Part shown: piece by piece, positions 1 to 51,764 of the stretch
Position numbering within the stretch: position 1 is the first letter of the stretch
Layout: the number at the start of each line of letters is the position of its first letter
Source: a virus
DNA length: 64,000 bases
IMG/VR virus record: IMGVR_UViG_3300039008_000243
Location: 1-64,000 of that record
Direction: 5' to 3' (one strand)
Position numbers and translations under genes: made by a program
Notes under the pieces: generated by a model
Database searches by the model: none
The model's input: only the letters and a program-made list of their open reading frames with translations
Told to the model about the DNA's origin: nothing

Positions 1-9
1 AATGAACTA

Positions 10-36
10 CCCCATCTTACTTCGTTGAAGATGGGG
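10..36 (-). other. Perfect 9-bp hairpin overlapping the tnpB stop codon. Candidate IS subterminal hairpin or 3' part of the omega/reRNA scaffold
   Basis: ccccatctt (10-18) pairs with aagatgggg (28-36) around a 9-nt loop. In IS200/IS605 elements the tnpB 3' end and downstream end encode the guide RNA scaffold. Any guide would lie outside the window. Confidence 0.4.
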
Positions 37-1396
37 TTTCTACATCCCCATCAGTAAGTTGAGATTTTTGACGTTTCACGCGACCTAGTTGCTTCATACT
101 TCCAGCATTCTTGCGTTTACTGGTGCTTGAAGTAGAGCTAGAATCATCTACGTCTAAGAGGCTAGTTCCTAACCCCTGTAGATTGTTGAAATACCAAAGC
201 AACATTACTTCTGCGGCTGCGATATCACGCTGTTGAGTATATCCGCAGTTGTTACAAACGTGAGTTCTTTGGTCTAAACTTTTCTTTTCTTGATGTCCAC
301 ATTTAGGACAAGTTTGTGATGGTTTAACCTTACAAGTAGGAACCTCAGCAAAAAAACCGCCAATGTCTGATAATTTAGCTTTTAGAGCATCTTTTATCAT
401 GCCCATACCAACATCAAGAATTGATTTATTTAGACCGGACTTTTGCTTTTTACGTCTACCTTCTTGACGCAGTTGTTCATGGGGGAAACCCCCAAGACCA
501 CACTGCGTCGCTTTTTTTGCTTTGGCACTCATGTTTTTGACTTCTAGTTTTTCAGTTACTACCGTGCTGTTACCGCGAATTATCCGTGTAGTTTCCTGGT
601 GAACAAAATTCTGTCGTTGGTTAGAAACTTTACGATTCAACTTACCAACTAACTTTTGAGTTTTTTTCCACCTTCTAGAAGCTTTTATTTTCTTTTTGAA
701 ATTACCTGCGCGTTTACGACGTTTAGCTTTACCCAATTGTTGATTTCTTTTTTCTGCTTTCCTAAAAAATCTAGGAGCAGGAATTAACCCATTATCGTCT
801 CCGTTCGTCCAAGCAATAGCATCATTACAACCTAAATCAATTGCAACTGTTCCACCTTCAGATGGACGGCTATTCTTCAACAAAGTATCGTCAACTTCTA
901 AAATTATGGAAGCATACCATTCACCATTACGATGAACAACATCTAAAGCTTTAGGATGTCCCCAAAGTCTAACCTTTCCACGCATTTGAATTTGACCGAT
1001 TTTTGCTAATTCTAAATATCCATTATCACCAGTGCTATGAACTTTCCATCCAGTAAATGATGGATAAGTCCAACCTGAATAATGCTTGATTGATTTGAAT
1101 TTAGGATATGCCCCAAGTCCTTTGAAAAAGCGTTGAAAAGCAAAATCAACACGTTTCAAAGTTGCTTGTAATGTTTGGGAGTTACAAAGCTTGTATTCCG
1201 TCCAAACTTCTTTGAAATCTGGCAAACAGTTCTGTTGCTCAAAGTAAGATACGGATTTACCAAACTTTTTGTAAGAAGTAATCCTGTTAGATACTGCGGC
1301 GTTATATAGGTCTTTATGCAGCTTCCGGTGATAATGTAATTCTGCATTCACTTTCTTAGTTGGATATAGCTTGAAAGTCCCTCTACGTAACGCCAT
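17..1396 (-). CDS. tnpB: TnpB (OrfB_IS605) RNA-guided nuclease-like transposon protein
   Basis: 459 aa. RuvC-like triad contexts AIDLG, TEKLEV and RDIAAA are present, with a CPKCG...CNNCG zinc finger between them and a basic linker (KRRKRAGNFKKK). Full length and apparently intact. Confidence 0.9.
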   Translation of the reverse strand: MALRRGTFKLYPTKKVNAELHYHRKLHKDLYNAAVSNRITSYKKFGKSVSYFEQQNCLPDFKEVWTEYKLCNSQTLQATLKRVDFAFQRFFKGLGAYPKFKSIKHYSGWTYPSFTGWKVHSTGDNGYLELAKIGQIQMRGKVRLWGHPKALDVVHRNGEWYASIILEVDDTLLKNSRPSEGGTVAIDLGCNDAIAWTNGDDNGLIPAPRFFRKAEKRNQQLGKAKRRKRAGNFKKKIKASRRWKKTQKLVGKLNRKVSNQRQNFVHQETTRIIRGNSTVVTEKLEVKNMSAKAKKATQCGLGGFPHEQLRQEGRRKKQKSGLNKSILDVGMGMIKDALKAKLSDIGGFFAEVPTCKVKPSQTCPKCGHQEKKSLDQRTHVCNNCGYTQQRDIAAAEVMLLWYFNNLQGLGTSLLDVDDSSSTSSTSKRKNAGSMKQLGRVKRQKSQLTDGDVETPSSTK

Positions 1397-1463
1397 CAGT
1401 AATCACCTCCTTTTCAGTTGCTTAACTTATGTTATACTAGCACTGCACAATTCAGGTGTCAAC

Positions 1464-1886
1464 ATGAAAACTCAGCTAAGGAAAGGTGCTCATGCTGTTT
1501 TTAAGATTCAGTTTCACATAGTTTTTGTGACCAAATATAGAAAAAACGTTATCAATCAAACAATTCTCACTAAATTACAGGAAGTATTTAGTCGTGTTTG
1601 CGAAAAAAGAAAATGCGAATTGTTGGAATTTAATGGGGAAGAAAATCACGTACATTTATTGGTAGACGTTCACCCCGACAACAATACTTCGCAGTTGATT
1701 AGTTCCCTCAAATCAGCATCAAGTAGAATTATTAGGAGAGAATTTCAGGATTACCTAAAACAGTTCTACTGGAAGAAAGAAGACCCAAGTTTTTGGACTG
1801 ATGCATACTGCGTTATTTCTGCTGGTGGTGCGCCACTAGAAATAGTGAAAGAATATATAAAATCTCAAGAAACGCCTAAAACATAA
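1464..1886 (+). CDS. tnpA: IS200/IS605 family Y1 (HUH) transposase TnpA
   Basis: ATG at 1464 inside track ORF 1371..1886. HUH motif (HVHLLV) and a C-terminal Tyr region (AYCVISAGGAPLEIVKEYI) are present; about 140 aa, typical for TnpA. Confidence 0.9.
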   Translation: MKTQLRKGAHAVFKIQFHIVFVTKYRKNVINQTILTKLQEVFSRVCEKRKCELLEFNGEENHVHLLVDVHPDNNTSQLISSLKSASSRIIRREFQDYLKQFYWKKEDPSFWTDAYCVISAGGAPLEIVKEYIKSQETPKT

Positions 1887-1972
1887 TGTTGCCAAAAACT
1901 CAACTATCCTCAAAACTCTTTCACCTGTGGTGAAAAACATTTTAAGGACGTTTCGTTTTTGACTCGCTTACA

Positions 1973-1997
1973 TCCCCAGGCTGTAGAGCCGTGGGGA
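1973..1997. other. Imperfect subterminal hairpin of the IS (tnpA-side end)
   Basis: tccccaggc / gccgtgggga with one bulged G and a 6-nt loop, about 90 nt after the tnpA stop. This is the kind of imperfect palindrome bound by TnpA. Confidence 0.5.
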
Positions 1998-1998
1998 A

Positions 1999-2115
1999 TT
2001 ACGCGAAATTAGTTAAAGCCCTGATAATAGAAGTTGCACTCACAACTGGTTCGCCATTAGATGCTTTATAAAAATCTAATGGGGTATCCTCAAAATCAAA
2101 TTTAGCTAAAAACAT
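1999..2115 (-). pseudogene. N-terminal 38-codon remnant of a Bro-N/antirepressor-like gene truncated by the IS insertion
   Basis: Manual translation gives MFLAKFDFEDTPLDFYKASNGEPVVSATSIIRALTNFA*. This follows the Bro-N pattern F-x-F-x(n)-dGEP-x-x-x-a-x-x-i-x-x-aL. The frame runs into the IS hairpin and stops at 1999-2001. Confidence 0.45.
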
Positions 2116-2126
2116 TATTAGCAAAG

Positions 2127-2171
2127 CAATATTGTCTACCCAATATTGCTAGCACATTCATGACAATATTG
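2127..2171. promoter_or_regulatory. Three copies of the 8-bp palindrome CAATATTG upstream of the truncated Bro-N-like gene (operator-like array)
   Basis: CAATATTG at 2127-2134, 2141-2148 and 2164-2171, directly 5' of the remnant start codon at 2115 on the minus strand. Confidence 0.35.
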
Positions 2172-2285
2172 CAAAGGAAAGATTGATATAATTTAAATTC
2201 AATAAGCATTTTTACTCATCCTAACAAAACACCCTTTGGCTCTAATTTGACCAGGGGAGGCTTTTTATTGAGGCTCTAGGGGGAA

Positions 2286-2894
2286 TTAATTAAGGGGTCT
2301 TAAGCGTTTTTCTTGGCGCTTTAGACACTCTTCCCGACCCTTTTTAAGCTCAATTAACCAACATATATGTCTTAGGGTTTCTTCATCAGGAAATTCCCCT
2401 TCGCCATGCCAATCTACCCACGGATTTCTGGGATCTCTGGAATAGGCTTTGATTTTCTTTGGGGGTTCCTTCTTATTGGCTGGTTTAAGGGCTTGAACCT
2501 CCTCCCTGAGAGCTTTTAGCTGGTCTGTGATGTCTGAAGCAGTTAAATGTGTTTCTCCCGTTTCGACCAGGGTTCGGATATGTATGTTGCACCAAACCCC
2601 AAATTTAGGAGATAGCCATCTCGCTATCTCAATTGCTACTAAAGGATGCCCCCAAGTACTGGCATCACCCCCAATATTATTAGTGGTTGAAACAACCAAT
2701 CCATCAGGGGGGATAATAATCCCCCCCTGCTCTGTAAGGGTTTCAGCCAACGCTTTTAAATAGTCTTTTGACTGTGTAGTTTTTAACCAATCTTTTAATT
2801 TCTTTCCGTGAGTTCTACAAAGAGATCCAAGATTCACATACTGATCTGAATCGCGTTGTTCAACTGTTTGACCCTCATATGTTAAAATTGTCAT
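2286..2894 (-). CDS. KilA-N domain protein
   Basis: N-terminal pattern YVNLGSLCRTHGKKLKDWL...STWGHPLVAIEIARWLSPKFGVWCNIHI is typical of a KilA-N DNA-binding domain, followed by a charged C-terminal half. Confidence 0.7.
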   Translation of the reverse strand: MTILTYEGQTVEQRDSDQYVNLGSLCRTHGKKLKDWLKTTQSKDYLKALAETLTEQGGIIIPPDGLVVSTTNNIGGDASTWGHPLVAIEIARWLSPKFGVWCNIHIRTLVETGETHLTASDITDQLKALREEVQALKPANKKEPPKKIKAYSRDPRNPWVDWHGEGEFPDEETLRHICWLIELKKGREECLKRQEKRLRPLN

Positions 2895-3453
2895 GATTAT
2901 TAGCCTAATCCTACTAGGTGAACGTCTGGTAGCTGATAAGAGCCAAGTTATGAGCTTGGCTGCTACTCAATTCATTCTAACAAAAATCCCCCTTTGGCTC
3001 TAATTTGACCAGGGGGATTTTTCTTTTCTGTAATTCCAATATACCCACAAACATCCCTTTAGAGGCATCTGTGAGCCTCATGAAAGCTTTTCACCCTACT
3101 CCCATGCCCTATTCGATGGTTTGCCCAAACAAGAGCCTTTAAAGAGCCAAATAAGAGCCTCATGAAAATCCCCTGTAGCCTAACAAGTTTTCATAAGTAT
3201 TTGTACTCACTAAGAGGGATGTAACAGGAGCCGCCTTAGCGACAACCTGAAAAAGCTTTTATTTAATTACGTAGTTAATTCCTGTGTCCGCTCAATAATC
3301 CCCTGTGTGCAAAATATATGACCAGGGTACTTAGAACTTTTGGAAATTTTTCTAAATATCATAAAAGCTTTTAAAAGTCAATCCCCATTCTGTATCATAA
3401 CCTGATACATTTAGCCGCTTCTTAGTGACTGGATTTTGCTGTTTTAATCAATT

Positions 3454-3822
3454 TAGTGACTTTTTAGTGAGAATTTTAAGCCATTTTAAGCCCTCAAAAG
3501 CAGTCTGTGACCAGGGTTTGGAATTTTTTAGTGAAAAAACGGTTTTCACACATGAAAAAAGTTGAAGAAATCGGACAATACGGAATATACCATAGATATA
3601 TATCTATGTATATATCATATATAATAAATATATATATATATACTTATATAATTTCTATTTCCTTCTATACTTACCTCTTACTTAGAATCTTCTCTTTCAA
3701 ATCCGTAAAATGGGCTTTTTTGGTAAAAAGGCTTTGTTCAAATTTGCAAACCCTGGTCAGGTCTACTTTTGAGGCTATTTTAGGGGTCTTCAAGTGGCTT
3801 AAAATTCTCACTAAAAAGTCAA
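3454..3822. repeat. Long imperfect inverted repeat (arms about 3454-3520 and 3748-3822) flanking about 230 bp of (TA)-rich DNA. Origin-like or partition-site-like structure, copy 1
   Basis: There is a perfect 26-bp arm core, tgactttttagtgagaattttaagcc (3457-3482), versus its reverse complement (3796-3821). An inner 13-bp pair tgaccagggtttg / caaaccctggtca lies at 3508-3520 and 3748-3760. An 18-bp palindrome catagatatatatctatg sits at 3591-3608, with runs of atatatatat. TAGTGA boxes occur at about 3423, 3454, 3465 and 3528. The arms are about 28/30 identical to those of the 31.6-kb locus. Confidence 0.6.
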
Positions 3823-4079
3823 TAAATTCGTTAAAATTATGGGTAAATACGTAGAGTTTTTTAGGTTTTTTTAGAAAAATATACCAAATTTTTTTAAGCA
3901 ATATTACTTGTAAGTATGCTACAAGACTTAAAGAGCTTTAATGAGCTTTTATTTAGGCTGTTAAAAGGCTCTTATTAGCTGTTTAATAGCTTGATAATAA
4001 TTATTTAACTAATTTTAGGTTCTCACGCGCGCGACCTTTTTGAATTACGTAGTTAATTAGATAAACTTATATAAGGCTA

Positions 4080-4108
4080 TTGACAGAATCTTGTTTTTGT
4101 TGTATTAT
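4080..4108 (+). promoter_or_regulatory. Sigma70-type promoter for the RHH gene
   Basis: TTGACA (4080-4085), 17-bp spacer, TATTAT (4103-4108). The AATTACGTAGTTAATT site lies just upstream at 4043-4058. Confidence 0.6.
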
Positions 4109-4156
4109 GTACTTAATGAATTTTTTACGTGAGAGCTTTTTTAAAGTTTTATAAAA

Positions 4157-4381
4157 ATGCCCAAAAACACCCAAGAATTAGAACAGCAACCCAAAGCAAA
4201 GCCAGGGAAAAAACCTTTTACTGATCGCAGCCTAATTAAGACCTCTGTGTCAGTCGCTTTATCCCCTGCTATCAGAGAAAAATTAGACGAGTTGGCATTA
4301 TTAGATAATTGTTCTCGTTCTCAAATAATCACAAATATTATCGAAAACTTTTTTGAAAAACGTAGCAACACCGGTCGATAA
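4157..4381 (+). CDS. Ribbon-helix-helix (CopG/Arc/MetJ-like) DNA-binding protein
   Basis: 74 aa. A basic N-terminal tail is followed by beta-strand TSVSVALSP, helix AIREKLDELALLDN and helix CSRSQIITNIIENFF. Confidence 0.65.
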   Translation: MPKNTQELEQQPKAKPGKKPFTDRSLIKTSVSVALSPAIREKLDELALLDNCSRSQIITNIIENFFEKRSNTGR

Positions 4382-4445
4382 TTTTTTGTGTTATACTTAA
4401 AGCAACTAAAAATTATTTGAAATTTTTATTTGAAATTTTTTAAAA

Positions 4446-4829
4446 ATGGCTACAAAAGATTTTCAAAGGCGTGAGGCAGATTTTGTACAGACAGAAGCAG
4501 TGACTGTTACTTGGCAAGCAAATGAAGTAGGTACTGATTTATGGCTAGATGCTACAACCACTATTGCAACAGTAGATTACACCCTGGTCAGGTATGTTAT
4601 TCCTTTGGCAGTATCTAATCAGGAATTGTTGCCTGATGGTAACTACACTCAGGCATACCAGACTGGAGGAGTTTCTGTTTATGTTTTTGATGGTACAGAG
4701 ACTGCTTATGCAGCCGGGACAGCTCCTACCTTATCTGAAGGCACAAAGCTTTCTGAAGCTCCATCATCCTCTAAAACTTTGTTTGATATCGATGCTTACC
4801 TTTTAGCTAGGGGTGTTGCCAGAAGTTAA
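4446..4829 (+). CDS. Hypothetical protein (early cassette)
   Basis: 127-aa ORF with non-junk composition, followed by a strong terminator at 4868-4912. Confidence 0.55.
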   Translation: MATKDFQRREADFVQTEAVTVTWQANEVGTDLWLDATTTIATVDYTLVRYVIPLAVSNQELLPDGNYTQAYQTGGVSVYVFDGTETAYAAGTAPTLSEGTKLSEAPSSSKTLFDIDAYLLARGVARS

Positions 4830-4867
4830 TCCCCTGGTCTCTTAAGCTTTTTTGTAGATTAATTTGA

Positions 4868-4912
4868 GCTTACAAAACTGTTCTAAAGGTTTTGTAAGCT
4901 TTTTGGTTTTTT
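4868..4912 (+). terminator. Rho-independent terminator
   Basis: 11-bp stem gcttacaaaac / gttttgtaagc, 10-nt loop, then tttttggtttttt. Confidence 0.75.
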
Positions 4913-4949
4913 ATAAGAATATTGGGTGAAAACTTTTTTTGGAAATCTA

Positions 4950-5015
4950 TTGACAATTAATTAACTAGTTAATAAGATAGGTACATAAGATAAAAAACAA
5001 ACAGGGAATACTAAA
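4950..5015 (+). promoter_or_regulatory. Early promoter-operator-leader cassette P1
   Basis: TTGACA 4950-4955, 17-bp spacer containing the palindrome ATTAACTAGTTAAT (4960-4973), TAAGAT 4973-4978. The conserved leader is gtacataagataaaaaacaaacagggaatactaaaATG. Confidence 0.75.
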
Positions 5016-5792: not shown

Positions 5793-5822
5793 AAATGTGT
5801 AAAAACTTTTTTTGGAAATCTA

Positions 5823-5887
5823 TTGACAATTAATTAACTAGTTAATAAGATAGGTACATAAGCAAAAAACAAACAGGGAATACTAAA
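5823..5887 (+). promoter_or_regulatory. Early promoter-operator-leader cassette P2
   Basis: TTGACA 5823-5828, palindrome ATTAACTAGTTAAT 5833-5846, TAAGAT 5846-5851. The leader is near identical to that of P1. Confidence 0.75.
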
Positions 5888-7432: not shown

Positions 7433-7458
7433 TTCCAAGGAGACTTGGGATTTTTTTT
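7433..7458 (+). terminator. Rho-independent terminator
   Basis: ttccaag-gaga-cttggga followed by T8. Confidence 0.7.
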
Positions 7459-7478
7459 GTAAATGTATAAAAAATCTA

Positions 7479-7543
7479 TTGACAATTAATTAACTAGTTA
7501 ATAGAATAAGTACATAAGACAAAAACAAACAGGAAATACGGAA
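7479..7543 (+). promoter_or_regulatory. Early promoter-operator-leader cassette P3
   Basis: TTGACA 7479-7484, palindrome 7489-7502, TAGAAT 7502-7507, conserved leader gtacataagacaaaaacaaacaggaaatacggaaATG. Confidence 0.75.
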
Positions 7544-24860: not shown

Positions 24861-25149
24861 TTATTTCTCCTTTTTTAAGTACTTGGTAGATAAATTCTAT
24901 ATGATTTTTTTGTTCATCAAAACCTATTAGTTTCACCCAAATATAACTAAAACTTTCTATAAATTTTTTCTCTTTGTTATTGAAGACAACATATGTCTTT
25001 AGGGTTAAGTGGTTTATTAAATTTTGGGTATTCTTATTTTTATTTAACCCAAAAATAACATAAGGATTATCTGGATTATAAAACCAAAAACTAGAAAATA
25101 GTTGGTTATTTAATGTTAAATTGAGTACTTGCATTACTTTTCCGCCCAA
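24853..25149 (-). CDS. Hypothetical protein
   Basis: 98-aa ORF overlapping both neighbours by a few codons (translational coupling). Confidence 0.45.
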   Translation of the reverse strand: MGGKVMQVLNLTLNNQLFSSFWFYNPDNPYVIFGLNKNKNTQNLINHLTLKTYVVFNNKEKKFIESFSYIWVKLIGFDEQKNHIEFIYQVLKKGEIND

Positions 25150-27659
25150 TTATTCACTAAACAACTTTCGGGTTCCCAAGAATCTGGCTGATATGAGGGT
25201 ACCCACTCTATAAAACATTCTGCCATAGTTCTATTAACAAACTCGGCAACTATTAATTCATACCTTTTAGAGCATTCACAACCCACCTCATCATGAGTCA
25301 TTTGCCAAATCATAGCTTTCCATTCAGGGTGTTTTAAGAATTCTGCATGGATTAATCCAAGAGCTTTTTTAATGATAGTACCTTCCAACCTAAGCCAATT
25401 AAAACTCACAATATCGGTAGCCTTACCTTCCCAAATACCAGTATAATTGTTGGGGAATTTTTCTACAAATAATCTACCTCCATCTATGGATTTAGACATA
25501 GCATATAATTTAGCCCCAGAAACCCCTATATTTTGAAATCCCTTACTAGTATTCAAATTAAACTTTAAATTATGTTCATTGGCTTTTCTTATAGCTTCAA
25601 GTTGAAATTTATAACCCACGGCATAACGAGATCGCCAACCTTTTATATATTTTTTACAGGTAGAAATCTCTTCTAACTGGTCAGCTTCTTTTAGGAAAGT
25701 GCTTTGTAACGTTGTCCCACCGTTCAGATTTAAACACCCATAATAAGTGACTTTACTAGCCTTATAAACTTCATCGACCAAGGGTTGGAGTTCATGAGTA
25801 AGGTCTTTGTGTATTTTTTTGATTTCCCAAGGATCCATGGGTTTCCCCATAGCATCAAAAATTCCACTAGCTGTTATATAGTGCTCCTTGAGTCCTTGCT
25901 CTTTAGCTTTTTTAAGTTCAGGTTCTCCACTAACTTCACCAAAAATTTGACTATGGCTCCCATTAAAATCAACAATAATCATGCTTTTGTTATATGGAAT
26001 CATCCACAAAAAAGCTAAATAATCTATTTTTAGAAGAGCAAAAAGAAAGTAACTACTGGTCAAGTAACTGTGTGAGAAAGCTTTTCTAATATTTTCTAAG
26101 CCTAATTGTTGTTTTTTACGTGAAAGTTTAGGTATATTTTGAGCATTAGGTTTACCTGAAGTAGTACGACCGGATGCTTGATCACCATTTTGGTTGTAGA
26201 AAGTAAAAATTCTCCCTTGTTTATAAAATTTTAAATAAGATTCTATATATTCTAAATCTTTTTTTACTGATCTATAAAGCAAAAGATTTTTTAACATTTT
26301 TAATAAATGTTGATGATAAAATATTTGACTTTGGTAAACATATTGGTTTGTAGATTTCGTTGTTCTTAAAATAAACTCAGTGACTGATGGGTTATCTGTT
26401 GCAGGCTCTCCGTCTTTATTCTCAATTATTACTTTAATATTAGATAAAAAATTAAGTAACTGTTTTGGACTATTTATGTTTATATTAGAATCTAGGTCTG
26501 ACCAGGGTTTTTTAAGAACTTTTAAAGCTTCTTTTCTCTGTTTAGCTAGTTTTTCTAAAGTTTTTTTGTCCGTAGGCAGCCCTGTTGTGTTGAGATTATT
26601 AAAAGCAGGAATAGATGATAATTCCGCTTTTACTACAGCTTCCATACCTTCTGCAAGGCACTTATTTAAAAGAACTATACTTGCTAAGAATGTGTATTTG
26701 GGATCGTTAGCCGCATAATTTATCTGATTGTTTGTCAAAGGTAAGAACCAATCAAAAGATTGATTTTCTTTATCTAGAAAGATACCTAATTCCCTTGCAA
26801 CTATTTCTTTTAAGGTATGAGGAAATCTCACCCCACTAGAGTTAAACCCCCTGCTTAAACCTGCATAATAAATTTGGCTGAGTATCCGGGTATCCACTAT
26901 ATTATTCATGAAGATTCCAAATTTATTTTTAAACCATTTACCCTCAAAAGAGGCATTTTGTACAAAGATCCTACAATGAGGATCTGATAATTTCTCTACT
27001 ACTTTTATAAAAGATTCATTTTCCTCCCAACTAGAATAAAAATCATATACTCGGATCTTATCTATTTGGGGCAAGTAGACTTGAACAAGTCTAATCTCCC
27101 CTGTCTGGGGGTTAAAAGCACCTTCTTGATAATTATGACCATACGTTTCAATGTCAATTGATAGATCAAGGGTGCTTTCTAAAACTTTTACATATTCTTC
27201 AGTATCTTCTAGCAAAATGTCTTTATTGAGGATTTCTTGGTTCGCATAATCAGGTTGATAAGAATCTCTTAAAATCTTTGTCTTCTCTATATCTTTCTGT
27301 ATAGCAGACACTTTTTTAGTGGCTTTTCTCAATCCAACCTGGTCAAATGAAATTAGCTCTACAACATCATTAAGGATTAAACCAAAATCATCACATTCAT
27401 TTACCACATAATGAAAATTTTGATAAGCTTGAATTAGAAATTTATAACCATTAAATGCGAATAAAGACCCTATAGGATATTTTGGATTAGTTATTGTTTT
27501 AATTTTTCTTAAACCTTTAGTTGACCAGGGGATTCTGATTTCTTTGTTTTCACATTGGCAAACATAGCTAAATGCAACCATATCTAAATCTATGACTAGA
27601 CATTTAAACCCATCAGGATGTTTAAAGGAATCCTTTACTTGATATCTTGGTTTAGGCAT
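25134..27659 (-). CDS. Family A (Pol I / T7-like) DNA polymerase with 3'-5' exonuclease domain
   Basis: Exonuclease motifs DIETYG, NASFEGKW and YAANDPKY. Polymerase motif A VDFNGSHSQIF, motif B KASKVTYYGCLNLNGG, motif C QMTHDEV. Confidence 0.9.
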   Translation of the reverse strand: MPKPRYQVKDSFKHPDGFKCLVIDLDMVAFSYVCQCENKEIRIPWSTKGLRKIKTITNPKYPIGSLFAFNGYKFLIQAYQNFHYVVNECDDFGLILNDVVELISFDQVGLRKATKKVSAIQKDIEKTKILRDSYQPDYANQEILNKDILLEDTEEYVKVLESTLDLSIDIETYGHNYQEGAFNPQTGEIRLVQVYLPQIDKIRVYDFYSSWEENESFIKVVEKLSDPHCRIFVQNASFEGKWFKNKFGIFMNNIVDTRILSQIYYAGLSRGFNSSGVRFPHTLKEIVARELGIFLDKENQSFDWFLPLTNNQINYAANDPKYTFLASIVLLNKCLAEGMEAVVKAELSSIPAFNNLNTTGLPTDKKTLEKLAKQRKEALKVLKKPWSDLDSNININSPKQLLNFLSNIKVIIENKDGEPATDNPSVTEFILRTTKSTNQYVYQSQIFYHQHLLKMLKNLLLYRSVKKDLEYIESYLKFYKQGRIFTFYNQNGDQASGRTTSGKPNAQNIPKLSRKKQQLGLENIRKAFSHSYLTSSYFLFALLKIDYLAFLWMIPYNKSMIIVDFNGSHSQIFGEVSGEPELKKAKEQGLKEHYITASGIFDAMGKPMDPWEIKKIHKDLTHELQPLVDEVYKASKVTYYGCLNLNGGTTLQSTFLKEADQLEEISTCKKYIKGWRSRYAVGYKFQLEAIRKANEHNLKFNLNTSKGFQNIGVSGAKLYAMSKSIDGGRLFVEKFPNNYTGIWEGKATDIVSFNWLRLEGTIIKKALGLIHAEFLKHPEWKAMIWQMTHDEVGCECSKRYELIVAEFVNRTMAECFIEWVPSYQPDSWEPESCLVNNWAEK

Positions 27660-29169
27660 TATAGATTCTCCTCAGTGAATAATTTATCTCAGTTTCTTGT
27701 GCAGACCATTTAGCTAATTTAGCAACTTTTTGATAATCTGTAAATAATAAGTTAGGTAATGCTGCAAGCATATGTCTAAATTTTTTGTGCTTACTATATT
27801 TTTCATAGAAAAAGTATAAATTTATATCTTTTTTATTATTTAAATCTAAAAACCCTTCTGCTCTTATTTTTTCGGGTATATAAGTTTTTGTATTTGTGCC
27901 AGGGGAGTAAGGACTATCTTTATCAGGTTCTTTAGCAGGTAAACAATTAAAAAAACCACATTCAGAACATTCTTCTATGTGGGGGACACTCCTATTTAAT
28001 TTTCTGATGTCTTTTTTAATAGTACTTCCACATTGCTCACAATTCCATTTGTAATTTTTTCCTTCTTTACCTTTAAGTGTGTAAAATCGATATCTGCAAG
28101 GTAAGCCATGATACCCAATCATTCCTACATGATCTAATATAATTTGAGTCTTTCCAGGTTTGTATCTGTTACCTCGCCCGTTACCCTGGTCGCATAAAAC
28201 TTCTGAAGCGGTTAACCTAAGCCATTGGACACATTCTACGTCAGGAATATCTAAACCTTCAGAAATAATATTTACATTGGTTAGAATTAAAAATTTTGGA
28301 TCTTCCCTAAATTGCTGTAAGATATTCTCACGGGCTTTTTTGGGTACAGATATTATTTCATTATTGACATATCTTTTTGTAGCAAGAGACTTCGCAATTT
28401 CTCTACCATAAATTTTTTGACCTAATTTGTTATATTCTGCTTCAATTTTTTGAGCATGGTGGATAGAAGTACAAAAAACTATGGTTTTTTTACCTTTAGA
28501 ATATTTTAACCAGTTTTCTACAATTTCTTTATTAATTTTTGGTTTTTTTAGATAATCTTCTTGTTGTTGTAAATCAAAATCTCCCATTTTCATATCAAGT
28601 CGCATGGTATAAGAATTAATAGGGGGTATTTCATAGGGAGCTAAGTAATTATTGTCTATATACCATCTGTAATCACCTCCAGGTAAAATTCTATCAAAAA
28701 GATTATCAAAACCTTTACCATCCAATCTGACAGGGGTAGCGCTCCAACCTAAAATCCTAACACTCTTATCTTTGTAAAATTTAACTACTTCTTCAAAAGT
28801 AGAGGCTTTTAAATTGTGGCACTCATCAAATAAGCATAATTTGGGAATAGTTTCTAACTTTTCTTTTCGTCTATACAAAGTTTGTATTGTACATAAAATA
28901 ATGGGTTTTTCTAAATTAGTTTTCTTATTAGCGGATACAAAGGAAACTTGACCGGGATATTCTTTTTCAAAAGTTTTATAAAAAGATTCAACAAGATAGT
29001 CTTTAGGACAAATAATAAACACTTGTTTACCCTGGTCAACGTAATACTTAGCTACATAAAAAATCTCTAAGCTTTTTCCTGTACCTGTAAAGTTCTGTCT
29101 AATTACATTATCGAAAGATTTGACCAGGTTATTTATAGCTTTTTGCTGGTATTTTCTAGGTTCATACAT
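27652..29169 (-). CDS. SF2 DEAD/DEAH-box helicase with C-terminal zinc ribbon
   Basis: Motif I FTGTGKS, motif II LFDECHN, motif III WSATP, motif VI QGNGRGNR. C-terminal CEQCGS...CSECG. Confidence 0.85.
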   Translation of the reverse strand: MYEPRKYQQKAINNLVKSFDNVIRQNFTGTGKSLEIFYVAKYYVDQGKQVFIICPKDYLVESFYKTFEKEYPGQVSFVSANKKTNLEKPIILCTIQTLYRRKEKLETIPKLCLFDECHNLKASTFEEVVKFYKDKSVRILGWSATPVRLDGKGFDNLFDRILPGGDYRWYIDNNYLAPYEIPPINSYTMRLDMKMGDFDLQQQEDYLKKPKINKEIVENWLKYSKGKKTIVFCTSIHHAQKIEAEYNKLGQKIYGREIAKSLATKRYVNNEIISVPKKARENILQQFREDPKFLILTNVNIISEGLDIPDVECVQWLRLTASEVLCDQGNGRGNRYKPGKTQIILDHVGMIGYHGLPCRYRFYTLKGKEGKNYKWNCEQCGSTIKKDIRKLNRSVPHIEECSECGFFNCLPAKEPDKDSPYSPGTNTKTYIPEKIRAEGFLDLNNKKDINLYFFYEKYSKHKKFRHMLAALPNLLFTDYQKVAKLAKWSAQETEINYSLRRIYNA

Positions 29170-29200
29170 ATAATTACGTAGTTAATTTTTATATCAAAAT

Positions 29201-31579: not shown

Positions 31580-31608
31580 ATTATCCATAGAAAATTTAAA
31601 ATTGTCAA
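31580..31608 (-). promoter_or_regulatory. Sigma70-type promoter for the parB-like/replication operon
   Basis: On the minus strand: TTGACA (31603-31608), 17-bp spacer, GATAAT (31580-31585). The -35 box is the outermost part of the left inverted-repeat arm. Confidence 0.55.
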
Positions 31609-31982
31609 CTAAAAAACCTAATTTTCCTCTTTTTTAACTTTTTTAGTGACTTTTTAGTGAGAATTTTAATCCTTTGAAACTCTTGTAACTAAGAACTGAC
31701 CAGGGTTTCAGAGTTTTTTAGCCGAAAAATACTATTTACATATTTCCCAAAAAGTAAAAAGACTATTCTATATATATACATATTTTTATATAACTATATA
31801 TTCATATAAAAATATGTATATATAATAAACTAAATTTTTAGAAATCCATATGGTAAGATTTGGTAAGAAAATCATTGAAATTCTTGCTATATAAAGGTTT
31901 CAGCGAATAAAATACCTTAAAATTCTCACTAAAAAGTCCCTAAAAAAGTTAAAAAAGAGGAAAATTAGGTTTTTTAGTTGAC
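31604..31982. repeat. 66-bp near-perfect inverted repeat flanking 247 bp of (TA)-rich DNA. Origin-like or parS-like structure, copy 2
   Basis: Arms at 31604-31669 and 31917-31982 have one mismatch (tagtgac vs tagggac). A nested perfect 21-bp inverted repeat lies at 31771-31791 and 31804-31824. Tandem TAGTGA boxes are present in the arms. The structure lies between divergent replication operons. Confidence 0.7.
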
Positions 31983-32007
31983 AAAACCCTGGTCAATTCT
32001 CTATAAA
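31978..32007 (+). promoter_or_regulatory. Sigma70-type promoter for the primase/helicase operon
   Basis: TTGACA 31978-31983 (end of the right repeat arm), 18-bp spacer containing CCTGGTC, TATAAA 32002-32007. An operator-like site ATTAACTAGTCAAT follows at 32011-32024. Confidence 0.55.
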
Positions 32008-32033
32008 ATTATTAACTAGTCAATCAAATACAT

Positions 32034-34694
32034 ATGGATCACCAAGATTTTGAGCTCATTCCTGCAAAGAGTATGGATATACTTTCTTTGTTTGGTCATA
32101 AGTCTATATATATCCCCTGCAAGGCTATAGAAGGTAAGAAAGCGGCTATCCTTCAAAACTGGTCACAAAAAGCTTTGAAGCCCGAAGAATTGCCTCCTAA
32201 CTCTGAGATGATAGCCTTACGCTTAGATGACTATGTAGCTATTGATTGCGATGGTGAATCAGCTTTAAATTACTTTATAGAATCTTTTGACCCTGGACAA
32301 ATCAAGACTTTTTATATATCCTCCATAGAGGCTAGAGGATGTTACATATTTAAAAAGCCTGAAAATTGGGAGTATAAGCTCTTTACAGTTCAAATTAATG
32401 AGGAATTATTAGAGATCCGCTCAGGTTCCGGTTGTTATCAAGTTATCCAAGGTATACACCCTGAAACCAAAGACTATTACTGGACAAATAATCTACCCCC
32501 TATAGAACTTAATTCTGAGGTTCTTCAATGGATTTCTCAACTTAAAAGACTCAAAGCTTTCCCAGAAAAAATTAAAAAATCTTATGAAACTATCTATTTA
32601 GATAAAAAAAACTTACCTGAAGACTTTAAAGTAAATTTACTTGATTTTGTTTCAAATGAAAACGCGAAGAATTATAAAAAGGGTGTAAAAACTTTTCGGA
32701 ATAACTCTGCATTTAACTTAGCTTGTGATTTGTTAGGATGTGAAGAGATATTCGATAATGCAGATATACCTATACAAACACCCCCAGAACAACTATTCCA
32801 AGAGTTTTGTGATAAATGTCCACAAACAGATTTTACAGCCACAGAAATTATTCAAACCTGGTCAAGTGCTAAGTCTCAACATAGGGAACCTTCTATATCT
32901 GCACAGACTTTTAATTATAAATGGCAAACACTTAGAAACCAATTAGGTTTAGATATAAAAAAACCTGTGGAAGAAAAGCCACAGGAAATAAAAACAACTA
33001 GCAATCAAAAAAACATTATGATCAGGTTGTATCAGATTATCAAAGATTTTGATACAAGTCAACTGCAAGAATTTTTTGATTTAGATGTTATTGTCAAAGA
33101 GCTCGCTATCAAGAATGAGTTATATGAGTTTGAATTCATTCAATACCTAAAAAAAGAGCTTCATATAAAAATACAGAAAGAGTCTGAACTGATTTTTCTA
33201 GGTACTGGCCTCCAAAATGTCAACTCTTTTAAGATAAAATCATTCTCAAAAACAAGATTTTATGAAGATTTTCAACTACATAAAAGTCTCAATGCATACC
33301 CTTTTGAGTTTTTATTTATCAACTTATTAACAGCCGTTTCTAGTCTTATTCCTCATAATCACAGATTATTTTGGAATAGTTCTGGCTCAGTCAACTCAAA
33401 TATTTTCACTATTCTCATTGGATCTGTGGCTTCAGGTAAGTCTAGGTTGATGGAGGATTTTTTAGATACCTGGTCAGAGCGGACTTTGATAGATAATAAT
33501 GCTTTTCATGATAACTACAAAAAATGGGAAGATAATTACAAAAAGTTCAAGAAAAAGTCTGTAGCAGCTCAGATAGAGTACTTTGAAGAACAAGGGGATG
33601 ATGTTCCTACAGGGGATACTACTCCAGAAGACAAATGGTTAGAAATTAATCCAGAACCCCAAGAGATATTACCTTTAAGCATTCGAGACAGCACTTTAGA
33701 GGGCATTCGGGATAATTGTTCAAAATTTGATAAGACCGACAGGGGTTTGCTTTGGGCGGTTGATGAATTATCTACAGCTCTGTCTACCTTGAGAGTACAT
33801 AGTAAGCAAAATAATGACCCCCTATCTAGTTTGCTTCCTATTTATAACGGAGATGTCACAAATCATTCCCGTGTATCTGACCAGGGTAAACGATTTGGTT
33901 ATTATAATGTCTCTTTGCTAACAACGACTCAATCTACTAGATTACTCAAGTTCTTTGATATTTCAGACCCCTCTGGTATTTTATCACGATTTTTATTCAT
34001 GCACCTAAAAGAAGACATAGAAACACCTTTATGCCATTCTATGTCTATTACAAGAGCACCCAAGCTAAAAGAGTTGCTGAGTGAGTATATTGATAGTTTT
34101 CAGTTAAAAATTCATGCAAATAATCAAGATGAAGCTTATTATCATTTATCTAAAGAGGCTTTTTATATCTTTTCGCAATTATATGACAGAATCAATGCAG
34201 TAGCTACTGAGATGCGACAACATGAAGTTGCCCCTGGAATTTCTCAATGGTTAAAAAGACTTCCTACTCATTTTGCTAAGCTAATTTTTGTGTGGCACCT
34301 TATTAAGTATGCAGAGGGGATAGAACCTAATAAGAATATAGTAAGCTCTGAAACAGTTAGTGAGATTGTACCAGTAATACTTTGGTTAAAAAATCAAACT
34401 GAGAGTGTACTTAAGCAAGTTATCCAATTATCCTTAAATAATTTAAAACCTGATGTACAAGAAGCTACTTTGGCTTTTAGAGATTTGCTGTATAAAAGCA
34501 ATAATGTTATCACAATGGATAGTTTTAGAAAATCAGGTTTACCTAAAAAACTTTGCTTTAGAGAGATTTATATACCTAGAAGCACACAAAGAGCTACTTT
34601 AAACGCGGCTGAAATCCAAGAAGTTTTTAGAGATATGGAAAGATACGGCTTGGGACACCATAATAAAGAGAAGAAAATTTTTACAGGGATTTAA
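32034..34694 (+). CDS. Bifunctional primase-polymerase / DUF3987-type (D5-like) helicase
   Basis: N-terminal prim-pol motifs VAIDCDGES and IQGIHPET. Walker A GSVASGKS, Walker B LLWAVDELS. 886 aa. Confidence 0.8.
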   Translation: MDHQDFELIPAKSMDILSLFGHKSIYIPCKAIEGKKAAILQNWSQKALKPEELPPNSEMIALRLDDYVAIDCDGESALNYFIESFDPGQIKTFYISSIEARGCYIFKKPENWEYKLFTVQINEELLEIRSGSGCYQVIQGIHPETKDYYWTNNLPPIELNSEVLQWISQLKRLKAFPEKIKKSYETIYLDKKNLPEDFKVNLLDFVSNENAKNYKKGVKTFRNNSAFNLACDLLGCEEIFDNADIPIQTPPEQLFQEFCDKCPQTDFTATEIIQTWSSAKSQHREPSISAQTFNYKWQTLRNQLGLDIKKPVEEKPQEIKTTSNQKNIMIRLYQIIKDFDTSQLQEFFDLDVIVKELAIKNELYEFEFIQYLKKELHIKIQKESELIFLGTGLQNVNSFKIKSFSKTRFYEDFQLHKSLNAYPFEFLFINLLTAVSSLIPHNHRLFWNSSGSVNSNIFTILIGSVASGKSRLMEDFLDTWSERTLIDNNAFHDNYKKWEDNYKKFKKKSVAAQIEYFEEQGDDVPTGDTTPEDKWLEINPEPQEILPLSIRDSTLEGIRDNCSKFDKTDRGLLWAVDELSTALSTLRVHSKQNNDPLSSLLPIYNGDVTNHSRVSDQGKRFGYYNVSLLTTTQSTRLLKFFDISDPSGILSRFLFMHLKEDIETPLCHSMSITRAPKLKELLSEYIDSFQLKIHANNQDEAYYHLSKEAFYIFSQLYDRINAVATEMRQHEVAPGISQWLKRLPTHFAKLIFVWHLIKYAEGIEPNKNIVSSETVSEIVPVILWLKNQTESVLKQVIQLSLNNLKPDVQEATLAFRDLLYKSNNVITMDSFRKSGLPKKLCFREIYIPRSTQRATLNAAEIQEVFRDMERYGLGHHNKEKKIFTGI

Positions 34695-39251: not shown

Positions 39252-42200
39252 TTATCCCTGTAAGCCTACATTACGTCTGAAATTAACATCGTTTCTTAAT
39301 TGGTTTGCCACCTTGTTATAACCCCCTTCAGCTCCGTTTCTCGAAGCTTGTTGTATCCCCTGGTCGAATTGTTCTTTAGTCACATAATCCATTTCACCGA
39401 TGCTAACATATTCCACTGTCATATTTGTTTGCTGATTTCGACCAGGTATTGAAGTTGTTGATACTAAACCACCATTAGCATAACTAGGTAGGTTTCCTAG
39501 TAGTTGTTCAGGGGTTAACCCGGCTCTCATAAGCTCTTCAGTTCTATCTGCGGGGATAATTAACTCACCTTCATGTACGATAGCTAATCTAGGATCTCTA
39601 CCTGATTCCGACCGTTCTTTTCTAAGTCCGTCCATAAGTCCTTGGGAGTACCTTGGGTAAGTTCCCCCTTCTGCATAGTAAGGAATTTTTCCCCCCATTG
39701 GGTAATATGGAATTCTACCCCCCATAGGATATCTTCCAACCATTCCCCCCTCATAGAATAAGCCTCCAAAAAGCCCTCCAAAAATACTAGTGAGTCCTGT
39801 ATTCAATACTTGGGACAAAATAGAATTGAAAAAGTTATCAAGAACATTTTCTAAGGATGAAGTACCCATTATAATGTCAGTAATACCTGTTGCAAGATTT
39901 TGCATGGCATTAGCCCCGACTTCATTGAGAGTGTCTCCAAAAGTTTTGAATTTTTGATTGATGCTTTCTAGATTCATTTGATTAATGATTGCTAGATCTT
40001 CTTTCATCTTTGCAAAAACGTTATCAGGGATGGCATTATTAGCCTCAATAAGCTTTCTTTGGTTTAATTCTAGATCCTCTAGTTCTCGTTTATATCTAAG
40101 ATTTTCTTGCTCTCTTTCGAGTTCTCTGGACATTCTATTTTTGATAAAAGGATTACCCCTATACTGGTCAATTTCTAGCTGTCTTCTTTGAAAAGCAGGA
40201 TTATTTGCAAGGTCTTCAATTTCTCTAACCCTGGTCAACTTATCTTCATCATCTTGAATTGCTGCTTGGCGTTGATTAAACTTTCCGATAAGATTTAGCC
40301 GTTCTTTTGTCAACTCATTAACCTTAGATAACCCACTGGCTTCTTTTAAGTATTGTTCTATGGAATAATTAGGATCATTTATTCTCTTTTCTTGTAGACT
40401 ATTCAGTTGTTCTTGATAAGATACCCTTTGTTGCTCTAACTCATTTCTATTTTGAACTTTTACAAGATCTTTTTGAGAAAGAGTAGGATCTATCTGTTTT
40501 TTAGCTTCTAGTAATGATTGATTTGCTTGCTGAATAGATAACCTTCTCTTATCATTTTCCACAGCTTGCTTAGATAGTTCAAGCTCTTCCCTAGCTGTAA
40601 ACAAAGACCTGAGTTTCTCTTTAGTTTGTGATTGAATTAAGGGTAACTGATCAATTAATTGTTGAGTATTTTCTTTCTCAAATTTAAGGTTTTGAACACC
40701 TATTTTTAATTTTTCAGCTAACAAAGGTTTTTGCTTATCTAAGGCTATTTGAATTAATTCTTGACCCGCTATTATGTTTTGGTCAAGATTCTTAATTTCC
40801 TCTTTCTTTTCTTGGATGATTCCTAAGAATTTTTCGTCAATATTTAAAATTTGTTGATTAAACTCACCTAAACGCGTCTTCAAAGGATCTATCTCTTGGG
40901 ATAAACTTTTTTGTAACCCAAATAAATCATTTAATTTTTTAATTCTTTGCTTTTCTTCTTTAACTTCAGCTAAATTAGCTTTTTTTCTATTCTGAATTAA
41001 CTTAACCTGTTCAGAATAATTAAGATTTTGTTTTTGTATTTCTGCTGTTTGATTTTTAATTTGTTGAGCTTCTTTAGCTAACTCTGTAGCGTTTTTGATA
41101 GTTGTTTGAGCTTTTTGAAAAGCAGGAATATTACCTCTTTCACCTGCTTTTTGTTTTCTATCGGCTATTATAAAATCTTGAAGTTTTTTAGTATGCTCTT
41201 CTAGATTAATCTCCCCTGGTTTTGATTTGACTTGACCAGGTTTTTTGTATTTTGATATAAATTCTAGGAGTTGTTTTTTATGTGCTTCTAGAGACTCTTC
41301 GGTGAGTTTAGTTGGTTTTTCTAGAACGCTTAAAGCTGATTCAGCCCGTTTTACTCCAGGTTCTTTCTGTCTTGCTGCAAGCCTTTTTCGGGTAAATGTC
41401 TGAATATTTTTAAATTGTCCTTCAGGGGTACCTTGCCCCCCATAATAACTTTTTCTGCCTTTGTATTGTATAGATGCCCAATGAGGAGCTATTTTATTAA
41501 AAGTCCCCTGGTCAAAATTCCCTTTTAATACTTTATCAAGTACCCCCCGCTTATGCAGAGATGCGATAAAATACAAATCTTGAAGACCGGGGCTAAAGGA
41601 TTTTGGAGTGTCCTGACCTTGATAATTAATGATGCTTTCTAAATCTGTCCTAGCATTTTTACCAAACTGCCTTTTAACTCTTGAACGAGAGTAATTAAAG
41701 TCCATCATCTGGTATCGACCAGATGCACTAGAATTATACCTGTAAGGCCTACCCCCTTCAACAAAAGGATGTCCAGAGAAGTCTGATATGTTTTCGTTAC
41801 CTATTAACATCCCATAACCAAAGTTCTTAGTCCATTTGCGGAAATCAGTGCCTTCAGCACGAGCTACCGCATCGGATAAGGCTAGTATGTTAGGGTTATT
41901 TCTTAAACCATATAAACGTTTACCTAGGCTAGTTAAACGTTTGATTTCATTTTCAGATAAATCATTGCCTCCTCGACGTATTTCAGGCATTAAATTTGGG
42001 TTGCCCCCTGTAGGGGCTTTTTGTTGAGGAAACGGAGGGAGTTTTTTTCTGAATTTGTCTAAATAGTTTTCTGTGGTATTTTTACCCGGTTTTTTAAATT
42101 TTGTGGTTGCGTTCTCTATTAAGTTTGTTGAGGCTTTTTTTCCTATAGCATCCGCTTGTTTCTTATACCATTTCATGAACTGTTTAACATCTACATAACT

Positions 42201-51021: not shown

Positions 51022-51657
51022 TTAAGGGTCAGGGTATTCTGCAATAGGAAGTAAAGATAAATCCCCACGTAGGAGACGATCCTTGCCTGTATCAGGGTTA
51101 GGAAATGCGGTACCTGTTAAAGTCCAACTAAATTGCTGCTGTAGCCCAAAATTAGGTGTTGCATCTGCCTTAATGTTAACCCAAGGCATTACGTACCAAT
51201 TTTCTTTGTCAGTATCAATTTCGTCTCCACAAGCAAAAGGACGAATTACTACTACTTTATAGGGGAGCTCATCACAGTTCCCTACAGTTAATCCCCCTTT
51301 ATCTGAAAAGCGATGTAGACCAGGGTCTGTACCTGGAACAGCACCCGGAGTGTAAACGGTATTAAAGGCTCTTTCCACTAGGTCTGTGGACTCTTGAGCA
51401 ATACTTGCTGTGAACATTACCTCAAGACCCGTGAAAGTCTCTGAAGTTGGTTGTTCGGACACTTGGGTGTTATTTCCTTGAGTCACGTCTCGGATCGTAA
51501 TAACTAAAGGCTCTAGTTGGTCAATTTTGGTTAAAACCAAAGTAGAATCCAGTGATTGCCAAGTAGGGAAAAATACATCATCTACCAGAGTTTTTAAGTC
51601 TGCTGGGTAAAGACCTATGGAGACTTCCGCAGGAAATCTTCCTGGAGATTTAGTCAT
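51022..51657 (-). CDS. Putative major tail protein
   Basis: 211 aa. The position (head-tail genes, this gene, strong hairpin, chaperone candidates, tape measure gene) matches the canonical siphovirus order. No motif recognised. Confidence 0.5.
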   Translation of the reverse strand: MTKSPGRFPAEVSIGLYPADLKTLVDDVFFPTWQSLDSTLVLTKIDQLEPLVITIRDVTQGNNTQVSEQPTSETFTGLEVMFTASIAQESTDLVERAFNTVYTPGAVPGTDPGLHRFSDKGGLTVGNCDELPYKVVVIRPFACGDEIDTDKENWYVMPWVNIKADATPNFGLQQQFSWTLTGTAFPNPDTGKDRLLRGDLSLLPIAEYPDP

Positions 51658-51764
51658 AAGTTAAATTAATGTAATTTCTTATATGGGATTTAAAACAATT
51701 ATACCATAACAAGATTTGCAAGAATATTTAGAAAAAGATAAGATTTACTTATATAAAAATTCTA

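Follow-up and report, generated by a model that had tools for sequence, protein, structure and literature searches.

Two paralogous inverted-repeat modules with (TA)-rich centres in a tailed-phage genome, possibly of the replication-origin type

Replication origins that combine repeats with AT-rich DNA are a familiar design, and two such sites may occur in one genome, as in phage SPP1. Here we describe two structures of this appearance in a tailed phage that is itself very novel. The DNA analysed, called the window below, is a stretch of 64,000 nucleotides (positions 1 to 64,000 of IMG/VR virus record IMGVR_UViG_3300039008_000243) which makes up nearly the whole of a 69-kb contig. Within it, locus A is an imperfect palindrome at about 3419-3836 whose arms flank a (TA)-rich centre, and locus B is a related palindrome whose arms lie at 31602-31669 and 31917-31984.

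Several described systems are comparable in one respect or another. The herpes simplex virus (HSV) origins oriS and oriL are palindromic, with an A+T centre and inverted boxes for an origin-binding helicase; they are placed between divergent genes, and each genome has more than one. In satellite phage P4 one short repeat is clustered at two sites, ori and crr, and the C-terminal domain of the alpha primase-helicase binds both. In the origins of staphylococcal pathogenicity islands (SaPI), oppositely oriented iterons stand on both sides of an AT-rich region. The SaPI Rep protein is a self-loading helicase whose winged-helix domain recognises the iterons, and two hexamers are thought to load, one on each side (PMC9371898). 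The oriL and oriR sites of SPP1 have a similar organisation and share one origin-binding protein; forks may stall at oriR, setting off the change to concatemeric replication (PMC6316719). Vibrio phage ICP1 has an early theta origin and an additional origin which is activated late in infection (PMC7145576). The DUF3987 proteins, one of which is encoded beside locus B, are MCM-related superfamily 6 (SF6) helicases, often fused to an archaeo-eukaryotic primase (AEP) and possessing a C-terminal winged helix, and their role is inferred to be replicative (PMC4889955). One member of the family is a 5'-3' helicase that binds its AEP primase and works with it (PMC11724360).

A sequence-only reading of the window had described locus A as a second, paralogous copy of the inverted-repeat and (TA)-rich structure at locus B, and the alignments bear this out. 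All six pairwise local alignments between the four arms score 60-131, compared to 19 +/- 3 for shuffled sequences (maximum 34). Common to the four arms are 22 invariant bases, GACTTTTTAGTGAGAATTTTAA. The 23-nt core, TGACTTTTTAGTGAGAATTTTAA, is found at four sites in the window when up to three mismatches are allowed, namely 3457+, 3799-, 31647+ and 31917- (the last with one mismatch), where the number expected by chance is 0. In the four-arm alignment 36 of 83 columns are invariant, and 22 of these are consecutive, a run reached in none of 200,000 permutations. The flanks of the core are only about 65-83% alike. Because the invariant columns are clustered in this way, the core is either constrained or homogenised by gene conversion. 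The likeness between the loci extends past the arms, where TGACCAGGGTTT and then TTTTTTAG(TG/CC)(A/G)AAAAA occur at corresponding distances from the core. The same elaborate structure is present at A and at B in paralogous copies, and the resemblance is not random.

Each arm is made up of phased short repeats, two TTTAGTGA boxes 11 bp, or one helical turn, apart and then AATTTTAA(GCC), and in both loci the boxes face opposite ways on the two sides of the AT-rich centre. The arms of locus A are 65 nt long, 83% complementary and 265 nt apart. In the left arm (3442-3506, plus strand) the boxes, AATTTAGTGA at 3450-3459 and TTTTTAGTGA at 3461-3470, are 11 bp apart on the plus strand and are followed by ATTTTAAGCC twice (3473-3492), the AATTTTAA(GCC) repeat recurring once more 10 bp further in. 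The left copy of the core TGACTTTTTAGTGAGAATTTTAA occupies 3457-3479 (+). In the right arm (3772-3836, minus strand) there is an exact copy of the core at 3799-3821(-), a single ATTTTAAGCC at 3796-3805(-), the box TTTTTAGTGA at 3808-3817(-) and a degenerate box, ATTTATTGAC, at 3819-3828(-). An inner pair of 20 nt (3508-3527 and 3740-3759, 90% complementary) is offset from the arms by a 12-nt indel. It includes TGACCAGGGTTT at 3508-3519 (+), as far from the core as its counterpart in the left arm of B, and the inverted partner of that sequence at 3748-3759 (-). Two further boxes lie outside the tandem pairs. An outlying variant, TTCTTAGTGA, is found at 3419-3428 (+) with one mismatch to TTTTTAGTGA, and an inner TTTTTAGTGA, within TTTTTTAGTGAAAAAA, is found at 3525-3534 (+); the equivalent position in B reads TTTTTTAGCCGAAAAA. 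The (TA)-rich centre of A (3585-3660), a candidate DNA-unwinding element, contains a perfect 18-bp palindrome, CATAGATATATATCTATG (3591-3608), and a 56-bp imperfect palindrome (3592-3647).

The whole of locus A lies in a gap of 1262 bp (2895-4156) that is poor in open reading frames (ORFs) and in which no coding, Rfam or tRNA signal was found. Two ORFs that cross the locus, 3507..3854 and 3671..3901, were rejected as genes; they are low-complexity artefacts, as they begin with GTG or TTG, translate the (TA) tract as YISMYISYIINIYIYTYIIS and carry no coding signal. The sequence-only reading had judged them in the same way, and the arms, TAGTGA boxes, 18-bp palindrome and ORF-poor region of 1.26 kb that it listed are all present, with small corrections to their coordinates.

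In locus B the arms are 68 nt long and 99% complementary, the left one (31602-31669, plus strand) with boxes at 31640-31649 and 31651-31660 and the core at 31647-31669, the right one (31917-31984, minus strand) with the singly mismatched core at 31917-31939. The (TA)-rich centre (31751-31850) includes a 54-bp palindrome at 31771-31824 with 27-nt arms that match at 93%. The z scores for single-strand folding are -13.5 for locus A and -15.2 for locus B. The outer ends of both B arms supply the -35 hexamers of consensus-like promoters. The leftward TTGACA (31608..31603, minus strand) is at the outer end of the left arm and belongs to a promoter of the form TTGACA-17-GATAAT. The rightward promoter (plus strand) comprises TTGACA at 31978-31983, which is the outer end of the right arm, a spacer of 18 nt and TATAAA at 32002-32007; it was read by eye, the scanner demanding T at position 6 of the second hexamer. 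The boxes of B are 63-87 bp upstream of the predicted start sites of these two promoters. At A, no outward promoter was found at the positions that match those in B. The right arm of A retains GTTTTTTAG, which precedes TTGACA in B, but the TTGACA hexamer itself is lost. The core is nevertheless perfect in both arms of A. That A has retained its boxes and centre while lacking the promoters argues against the boxes working solely via an adjacent promoter.

The centres of the two loci are the least stable duplexes of the 64 kb. Over 50 bp the centre of A has a predicted stability of -42.3 kcal/mol and that of B -44.4 kcal/mol, about 4 standard deviations above the window mean of -60.5 kcal/mol (standard deviation 4.1). 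When nearest-neighbour stability is calculated over 100 bp the two centres are again the two least stable segments, B being the least stable of all, and the density of TATA and ATAT is by far the highest in the window at these places. In the arms, T-tracts are repeated about every 10.7 bp. The curvature predicted by a wedge model places the four arms in the top 1-5% (the arms of A in the top 2-3%), and the centres are predicted to be straight. The maximum predicted curvature of the window is at about 3865, just beyond the right arm of A.

Gene content was assigned from Pfam and PHROG scans of about 58 ORFs of the window. Both loci are placed at points of diverging transcription. Through its two promoters B heads two divergent replication operons, the leftward one encoding a 358-aa protein, a 379-aa protein, a superfamily 2 (SF2) helicase (27652-29169) and a family A DNA polymerase (PolA, 25134-27659), and the rightward one a primase-helicase and a DHH phosphoesterase. 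The primase-helicase, an AEP primase/DUF3987 helicase of 886 aa (32034..34694, plus strand), matches DUF3987 with 75.8 bits (E 4.9e-21) and Prim-Pol with 20 bits, under the cut-off. Its gene starts 50 bp downstream of B, so that B, but not A, is located next to the candidate initiator gene. To the left of A the first gene encodes a KilA-N domain protein (2286..2894, minus strand), and to the right the first gene encodes a probable ribbon-helix-helix (RHH) protein of 74 aa (4157..4381, plus strand). The latter assignment comes from an RHH sequence pattern and the predicted topology (AlphaFold2 (AF2) model with a predicted local distance difference test score (pLDDT) of 72); the best fold matches are the RHH domains of Arc, PrpA, ParD and MatP, all with E>1. 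The 74-aa protein is an alternative candidate for binding the boxes, or operators. The strong promoter nearest to A, at 4080-4108, is separated from the right arm by about 245 bp, with an upstream site of its own.

The palindrome, the A+T centre, the inverted boxes, the divergent genes and the multiple copies are all shared with the HSV origins, but as an analogy of design only: HSV is a eukaryotic virus, its palindromes are far shorter, at 45 and 144 bp, and its initiator, UL9, belongs to SF2. P4 is comparable in its bipartite requirement in cis, its separated repeat clusters and its fused primase-helicase. Unlike A and B, the P4 sites are 4.5 kb apart and consist of octamer repeats without a large palindrome, crr has no TA centre, and alpha combines another primase with a helicase of another family. 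The likeness to SaPI origins is in the short repeats that flank an AT-rich region, two or more to a side and opposed, and B, as in SaPI, adjoins the gene for a primase-linked, MCM-like helicase, a C-terminal winged helix being a feature of both the SaPI protein and the DUF3987 family. SaPI iterons, however, are 5-6 nt long and their arrangement is compact, whereas here the conserved unit is 22-23 nt, the arms are 65-68 nt and the module is about 400 bp. SaPI have one origin, downstream of rep, whereas here there are two copies, of which B precedes the gene and is joined to promoters. The 886-aa protein showed no detectable sequence similarity to the solved Rep proteins.

SPP1 provides the parallel for two distant sites in one lytic phage genome, each with repeats and an AT-rich unwinding element (PMC6316719, PMC3485210). 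As in the present phage, one of the SPP1 sites is in the replication cluster and the other in a remote non-coding segment between transcription signals. The SPP1 repeats, in contrast, are direct, oriL is inside gene 38, a separate origin-binding protein acts with a loader and a DnaB-type helicase, and the supposed roadblock role of oriR has no known parallel for locus A. ICP1 resembles what is proposed below in being a lytic phage with two initiation sites used at different times of infection; its sites were found by read-depth profiling and have not been described as paralogous palindromes.

The reading best supported by the anatomy, the gene context and the analogies is that A and B may be origin-type modules bound by one phage protein, B serving as the primary origin and A as a second origin or secondary site. 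We put it forward tentatively, as an account that falls a little short of probable. One phage protein would bind the boxes on both arms in opposite orientation, wrap the curved arms and open the TA centre, and the opened centre would then allow two helicase rings to load facing in opposite directions. The inverted repeats on bent DNA, the meltable centre and the neighbouring primase-helicase gene suggest that the likeliest binder would be the 886-aa AEP primase/DUF3987 (MCM-like) helicase encoded to the right of B. On this proposal B would be the better-preserved copy and the primary origin, lying as it does among the replication genes, with arms that run into the -35 hexamers of the divergent operons. 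A would be a second copy of the same protein-binding and duplex-melting module, and could act either as a second initiation site under other conditions or as a high-affinity secondary site for the same protein, a role that has been suggested for oriR of SPP1. Two origins had also been suggested from the sequence alone, and with that general idea the inverted boxes, the meltable centres and the position of B beside the primase-helicase agree. The particular forms suggested are not supported. For a theta origin paired with a rolling-circle origin, the sole HUH enzyme is the transposase of an IS200/IS605 element and there is no HUH Rep; for a lytic origin paired with a plasmid-prophage origin, no integrase, ParA/ParB or other plasmid-maintenance gene was present in the ORFs scanned.

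A further feature of both loci is the word GACCAGG. Together with its complement, CCTGGTC, it is the most over-represented word of the window, with 83 copies against about 3 expected, and the longer TGACCAGGG has 36 copies against 0.26 expected. The copies are spread evenly at a spacing of about 750 bp, on both strands and in all frames, sense and antisense; examples are those at 2249, 3007, 3320 and 3509 on the plus strand and 3752, 4583 and 4833 on the minus strand. The inner GACCAGG pair of locus A, which had been offered as part of the resemblance to B, is therefore real but adds little to it, since the word is genome-wide. Four of the seven copies of the 12-mer TGACCAGGGTTT are at A and B. 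There was no enrichment of GACCAGG in the cyanobacterial genome loci fetched via the transposase of the insertion sequence (IS), and neither the inserted IS nor the contig of the nearest relative contains the word. A literature search for the 7-mer retrieved only primers.

The strand of GACCAGG flips from plus to minus at the centre of A (five of five copies on each side) and at the centre of B (three of three), and nowhere else in the window do three or more successive copies agree on each side of such a switch. An unbiased scan for a single polarity switch on the 69-kb circle lands at 3.5-4.0 kb, ie at locus A, with 57 of 90 copies in agreement (permutation P about 0.009; 14 of 17 for intergenic copies). 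The local polarity at A and B gives post hoc support to the origin proposal which is suggestive only. Priming, loading, modification and nicking signals are possibilities for the role of the word. That it is a polar signal for the replication machinery of the phage, for example a priming or loading site for the AEP primase/SF6 helicase, has a slender chance of being correct; if it were, the palindrome pair and GACCAGG would together make up a genome-wide replication 'formatting' system, which to our knowledge has not been described for phages with AEP primases. A genome-wide polarity model for the word was also tested and performed no better than control words.

Relatives of the module were sought in several collections. 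A blastn search with 2900-4400 against phages and plasmids and a tblastn search with the primase-helicase against phages gave no relative. The core was absent from 185,579 species-representative (GTDB) genomes, IMG/VR and JGI metagenomes, and 36 loci taken from the genomes of Nostocales and other cyanobacteria likewise lacked it. IMG/VR locus searches seeded with the primase, PolA and the helicase yielded no module-bearing relative, and among 5.8 billion proteins the primase-helicase and the 358-aa neighbour of B matched only themselves. A relaxed pattern of tandem boxes had three matches in metagenomes, all of them unrelated single tandem sites in GC-richer DNA. The sole relative found was a 9.8-kb contig (L005) whose helicase is 45% identical. 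The least stable duplex of that contig (4277-4376) is just upstream of the homologous replication genes and holds TATCACT-TTTATATAT-TAGTGATA, a small inverted repeat with the TAGTGA hexamer in the opposite arrangement. It is possibly an analogous site, and probably a chance occurrence.

A number of findings weigh against the origin proposal. The AF2 model of the C-terminus of the 886-aa protein has a pLDDT of 45 and is unusable for recognising a winged helix there, and no sequence match to that region was found in the PDB. The boxes of B are at a distance at which activators bind (63-87 bp upstream), and a purely transcriptional role would account for B just as well. Between A and the presumed initiator gene there are 28 kb, and with arms only 83% complementary A is possibly a decaying copy. 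No enrichment of DnaA boxes was found. The turns in GC skew fall where the gene strand switches, which makes the skew uninformative. In L005 the module, the boxes, GACCAGG and any comparable palindrome are all absent, and the phage is a singleton. The genome-wide polarity of GACCAGG is no stronger than that of control words, 47% of 387 reaching the same level, and it is confounded with a mild preference of the word for the strand antisense to genes, since gene orientation flips at A and B. The predicted curvature depends on the wedge parameters chosen.

The strongest competing explanation, unlikely in our view but by no means negligible, is that the palindromes serve in transcription control. 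The TAGTGA boxes would bind a phage regulator acting jointly on divergent operons, for example one of the RHH or KilA-N type, the TA centre would be a spacer or bendable DNA, and A would control early genes and B replication genes, the two being possibly linked by looping. The position of both loci where transcription diverges agrees with this, as do the DNA-binding genes on both sides of A. The -35 hexamers within the B arms, with boxes 63-87 bp upstream, recall class I activators; curved upstream DNA commonly stimulates promoters; and the genome is rich in other operator-like repeated palindromes in or near promoters. The features that A and B have in common, however, are the boxes and an extreme TA centre, not promoters. 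The arms of A have no outward promoter, and the strong promoter closest to them (4080-4108) is served by a separate upstream site. A regulatory palindrome leaves unexplained the location of the two least stable segments exactly between the inverted boxes, and other early promoters carry TATTAACTAGTTAATA, which would be a more natural target for an RHH repressor.

It is improbable that the loci are selfish or neutral repeats, either a miniature inverted-repeat transposable element (MITE) in two copies or, in the case of A, a functionless decaying duplicate of B. Long terminal inverted repeats around an interior that is AT-rich and non-coding, a length of about 400 bp and the presence of two copies would suit such an element, and decay would account for the more degenerate arms of A (83% compared to 99% in B) and its lost promoter hexamers; the IS200/IS605 element 1.5 kb away shows that the region tolerates insertions. 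On inspection, however, no target-site duplication abuts the arms of A or B, and no further copies of the core were found in the collections searched, host-type loci included. There is no cognate DDE transposase, and the ends of IS200/IS605 are hairpins, not terminal inverted repeats. The B arms supply the -35 boxes of the replication-operon promoters, and conservation in A is clustered on the core, unlike neutral decay, although gene conversion could mimic this.

We regard as very unlikely an inverton or a pair of recombination sites, at which a recombinase would flip the segment of 250-265 bp or recombine A with B and so alter expression of the flanking operons. Inverted repeats around a short AT-rich segment between divergent genes, and weak promoter-like matches within the segments, are what such a switch would show, and a short-read assembly breaks at the B arms. 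But neither the ORFs scanned nor the gene calls for the 5 kb beyond the window included a serine or tyrosine recombinase or an invertase, the arms are far longer than those of typical invertons, and the genes flanking B have consensus promoters of their own outside the segment. The breaks at B are explained by an exact repeat of 45 nt in a k=31 graph, and the A segment assembles in a single orientation.

A partition (centromere), packaging (pac/cos) or telomere-resolution site is scarcely to be expected: repeated boxes beside an RHH-type gene do recall type Ib centromeres, and a palindrome with a TA centre the targets of protelomerases, but the ORFs scanned included no ParA, ParB or protelomerase gene and gave no indication of lysogeny or plasmid maintenance, which also tells against the origin-plus-partition pairing of the sequence-only reading, while 24-28 kb separate each locus from the terminase genes and the palindromes are imperfect or interrupted between arms and centre and present in two copies.

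Should A and B be origins, they would give a concrete model of replication for a cyanophage that is otherwise unannotatable, and the second paralogous site might time or redirect replication, as is supposed for oriR of SPP1. We know of no origin recognised by a DUF3987 helicase that has been defined to date, and the invariant core of 22-23 bp is a ready binding substrate for the study of such recognition. In Nostocales, for which genetic tools are scarce, both loci would also be candidates for use in phage-encoded-resistance constructs and in the engineering of replicons. If they are merely regulatory or decaying repeats, the finding is an ordinary one.

The remaining gene content is that of a tailed phage, with a large terminase (59849-61225), a portal (57744-59084), a major head protein (54618-55619), endolysin, ThyX, dCMP deaminase and thymidylate kinase. 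The tape-measure protein, a single ORF of 3593 aa (39252-50033, minus strand), matches the TMP_3 family; it would rank among the longest known, implying a very long tail. The IS200/IS605 element occupies 1 to about 2000, with tnpB at 17-1396 (-), tnpA at 1371-1886 (+) and end hairpins at about 10-45 and about 1970-2000. Its outer end is the terminus of both the source contig and one Logan contig. As the element is without GACCAGG, it was probably inserted recently. The TnpB protein is 83-84% identical to copies from Dolichospermum, Scytonema and Calothrix and 75-81% identical to copies from Rivularia, Anabaena and Nostoc, and the nearest phage polymerases in GenBank are those of Nodularia phages (22% identity). 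From these identities the host is very probably a heterocystous (Nostocales) cyanobacterium. The tnpB-sense strand, which we take to be the active top strand from the layout of IS608, is the minus strand of the window. IS200/IS605-type elements insert into the lagging-strand template (PMC5027513), and the orientation of this copy, adjacent to A, fits a replication fork arriving from the right, as a weak and post hoc point.

An independent Logan assembly of the same sample matches window positions 1-4958 base for base, and in it the segment between the arms of A is assembled in one orientation. Logan contigs stop at 31631 and 31955, 30 nt inside each arm of B, because the 45-nt exact inverted repeat disrupts the k=31 graph. 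The orientation of the 247-bp interior of B therefore follows the source assembler alone. A further sequence, L003, corresponds over its positions 1-4977 to about 63.9-68.9 kb of the source contig, mostly past the right end of the window, and contains genes of 751 and 706 aa. These have signatures of class II ribonucleotide reductase (RNR), intein and LAGLIDADG, and are probably intein-containing RNR genes.

Other repeated elements are found near the loci. The sequence AATTACGTAGTTAATT (TAATTA-N6-TAATTA) has exact copies at 3265-3280, 4043-4058 and 29172-29187. The first two flank A, the copy at 4043 being just upstream of the 4080-4108 promoter, and the third sits between the helicase gene and the gene for the 379-aa protein. 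Immediately before the 4043 site, at 4026-4035, is CACGCGCGCG, a non-coding sequence which is the sole alternating CG run in this genome of 32% GC. The KilA-N gene is bracketed by direct repeats of 32 nt (2226-2257 and 2984-3015, 94% identical). Each forms a hairpin, as with AAATCCCCCT...AGGGGGATTT at 2984-3020, and TGACCAGGG is at the 3' end of the hairpin loops, running into the stem. They may act as terminators, or else mark where a gene cassette begins and ends.

A promoter cassette, TTGACA-ATTAATTAACTAGTTAA-TAAGAT, is repeated at 4923-4996, 5796-5869 and 7452-7525, and also at 9461, 51774 and 63697; the spacer holds the perfect 16-bp palindrome TATTAACTAGTTAATA. It precedes several genes of the early region, and its copies have the look of promoters controlled together by one dimeric repressor. 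Behind the rightward promoter of B, at about 32008-32025, there is a half-degenerate copy. Another copy, without the TAGTGA core, is in a third AT-rich divergent intergenic region (51648-51847), which is the second most AT-rich 200-bp segment of the window and ranks 4-5 in instability. About 0.6 kb to the right of this region there is a weaker switch of GACCAGG from plus to minus (52208 / 52511).

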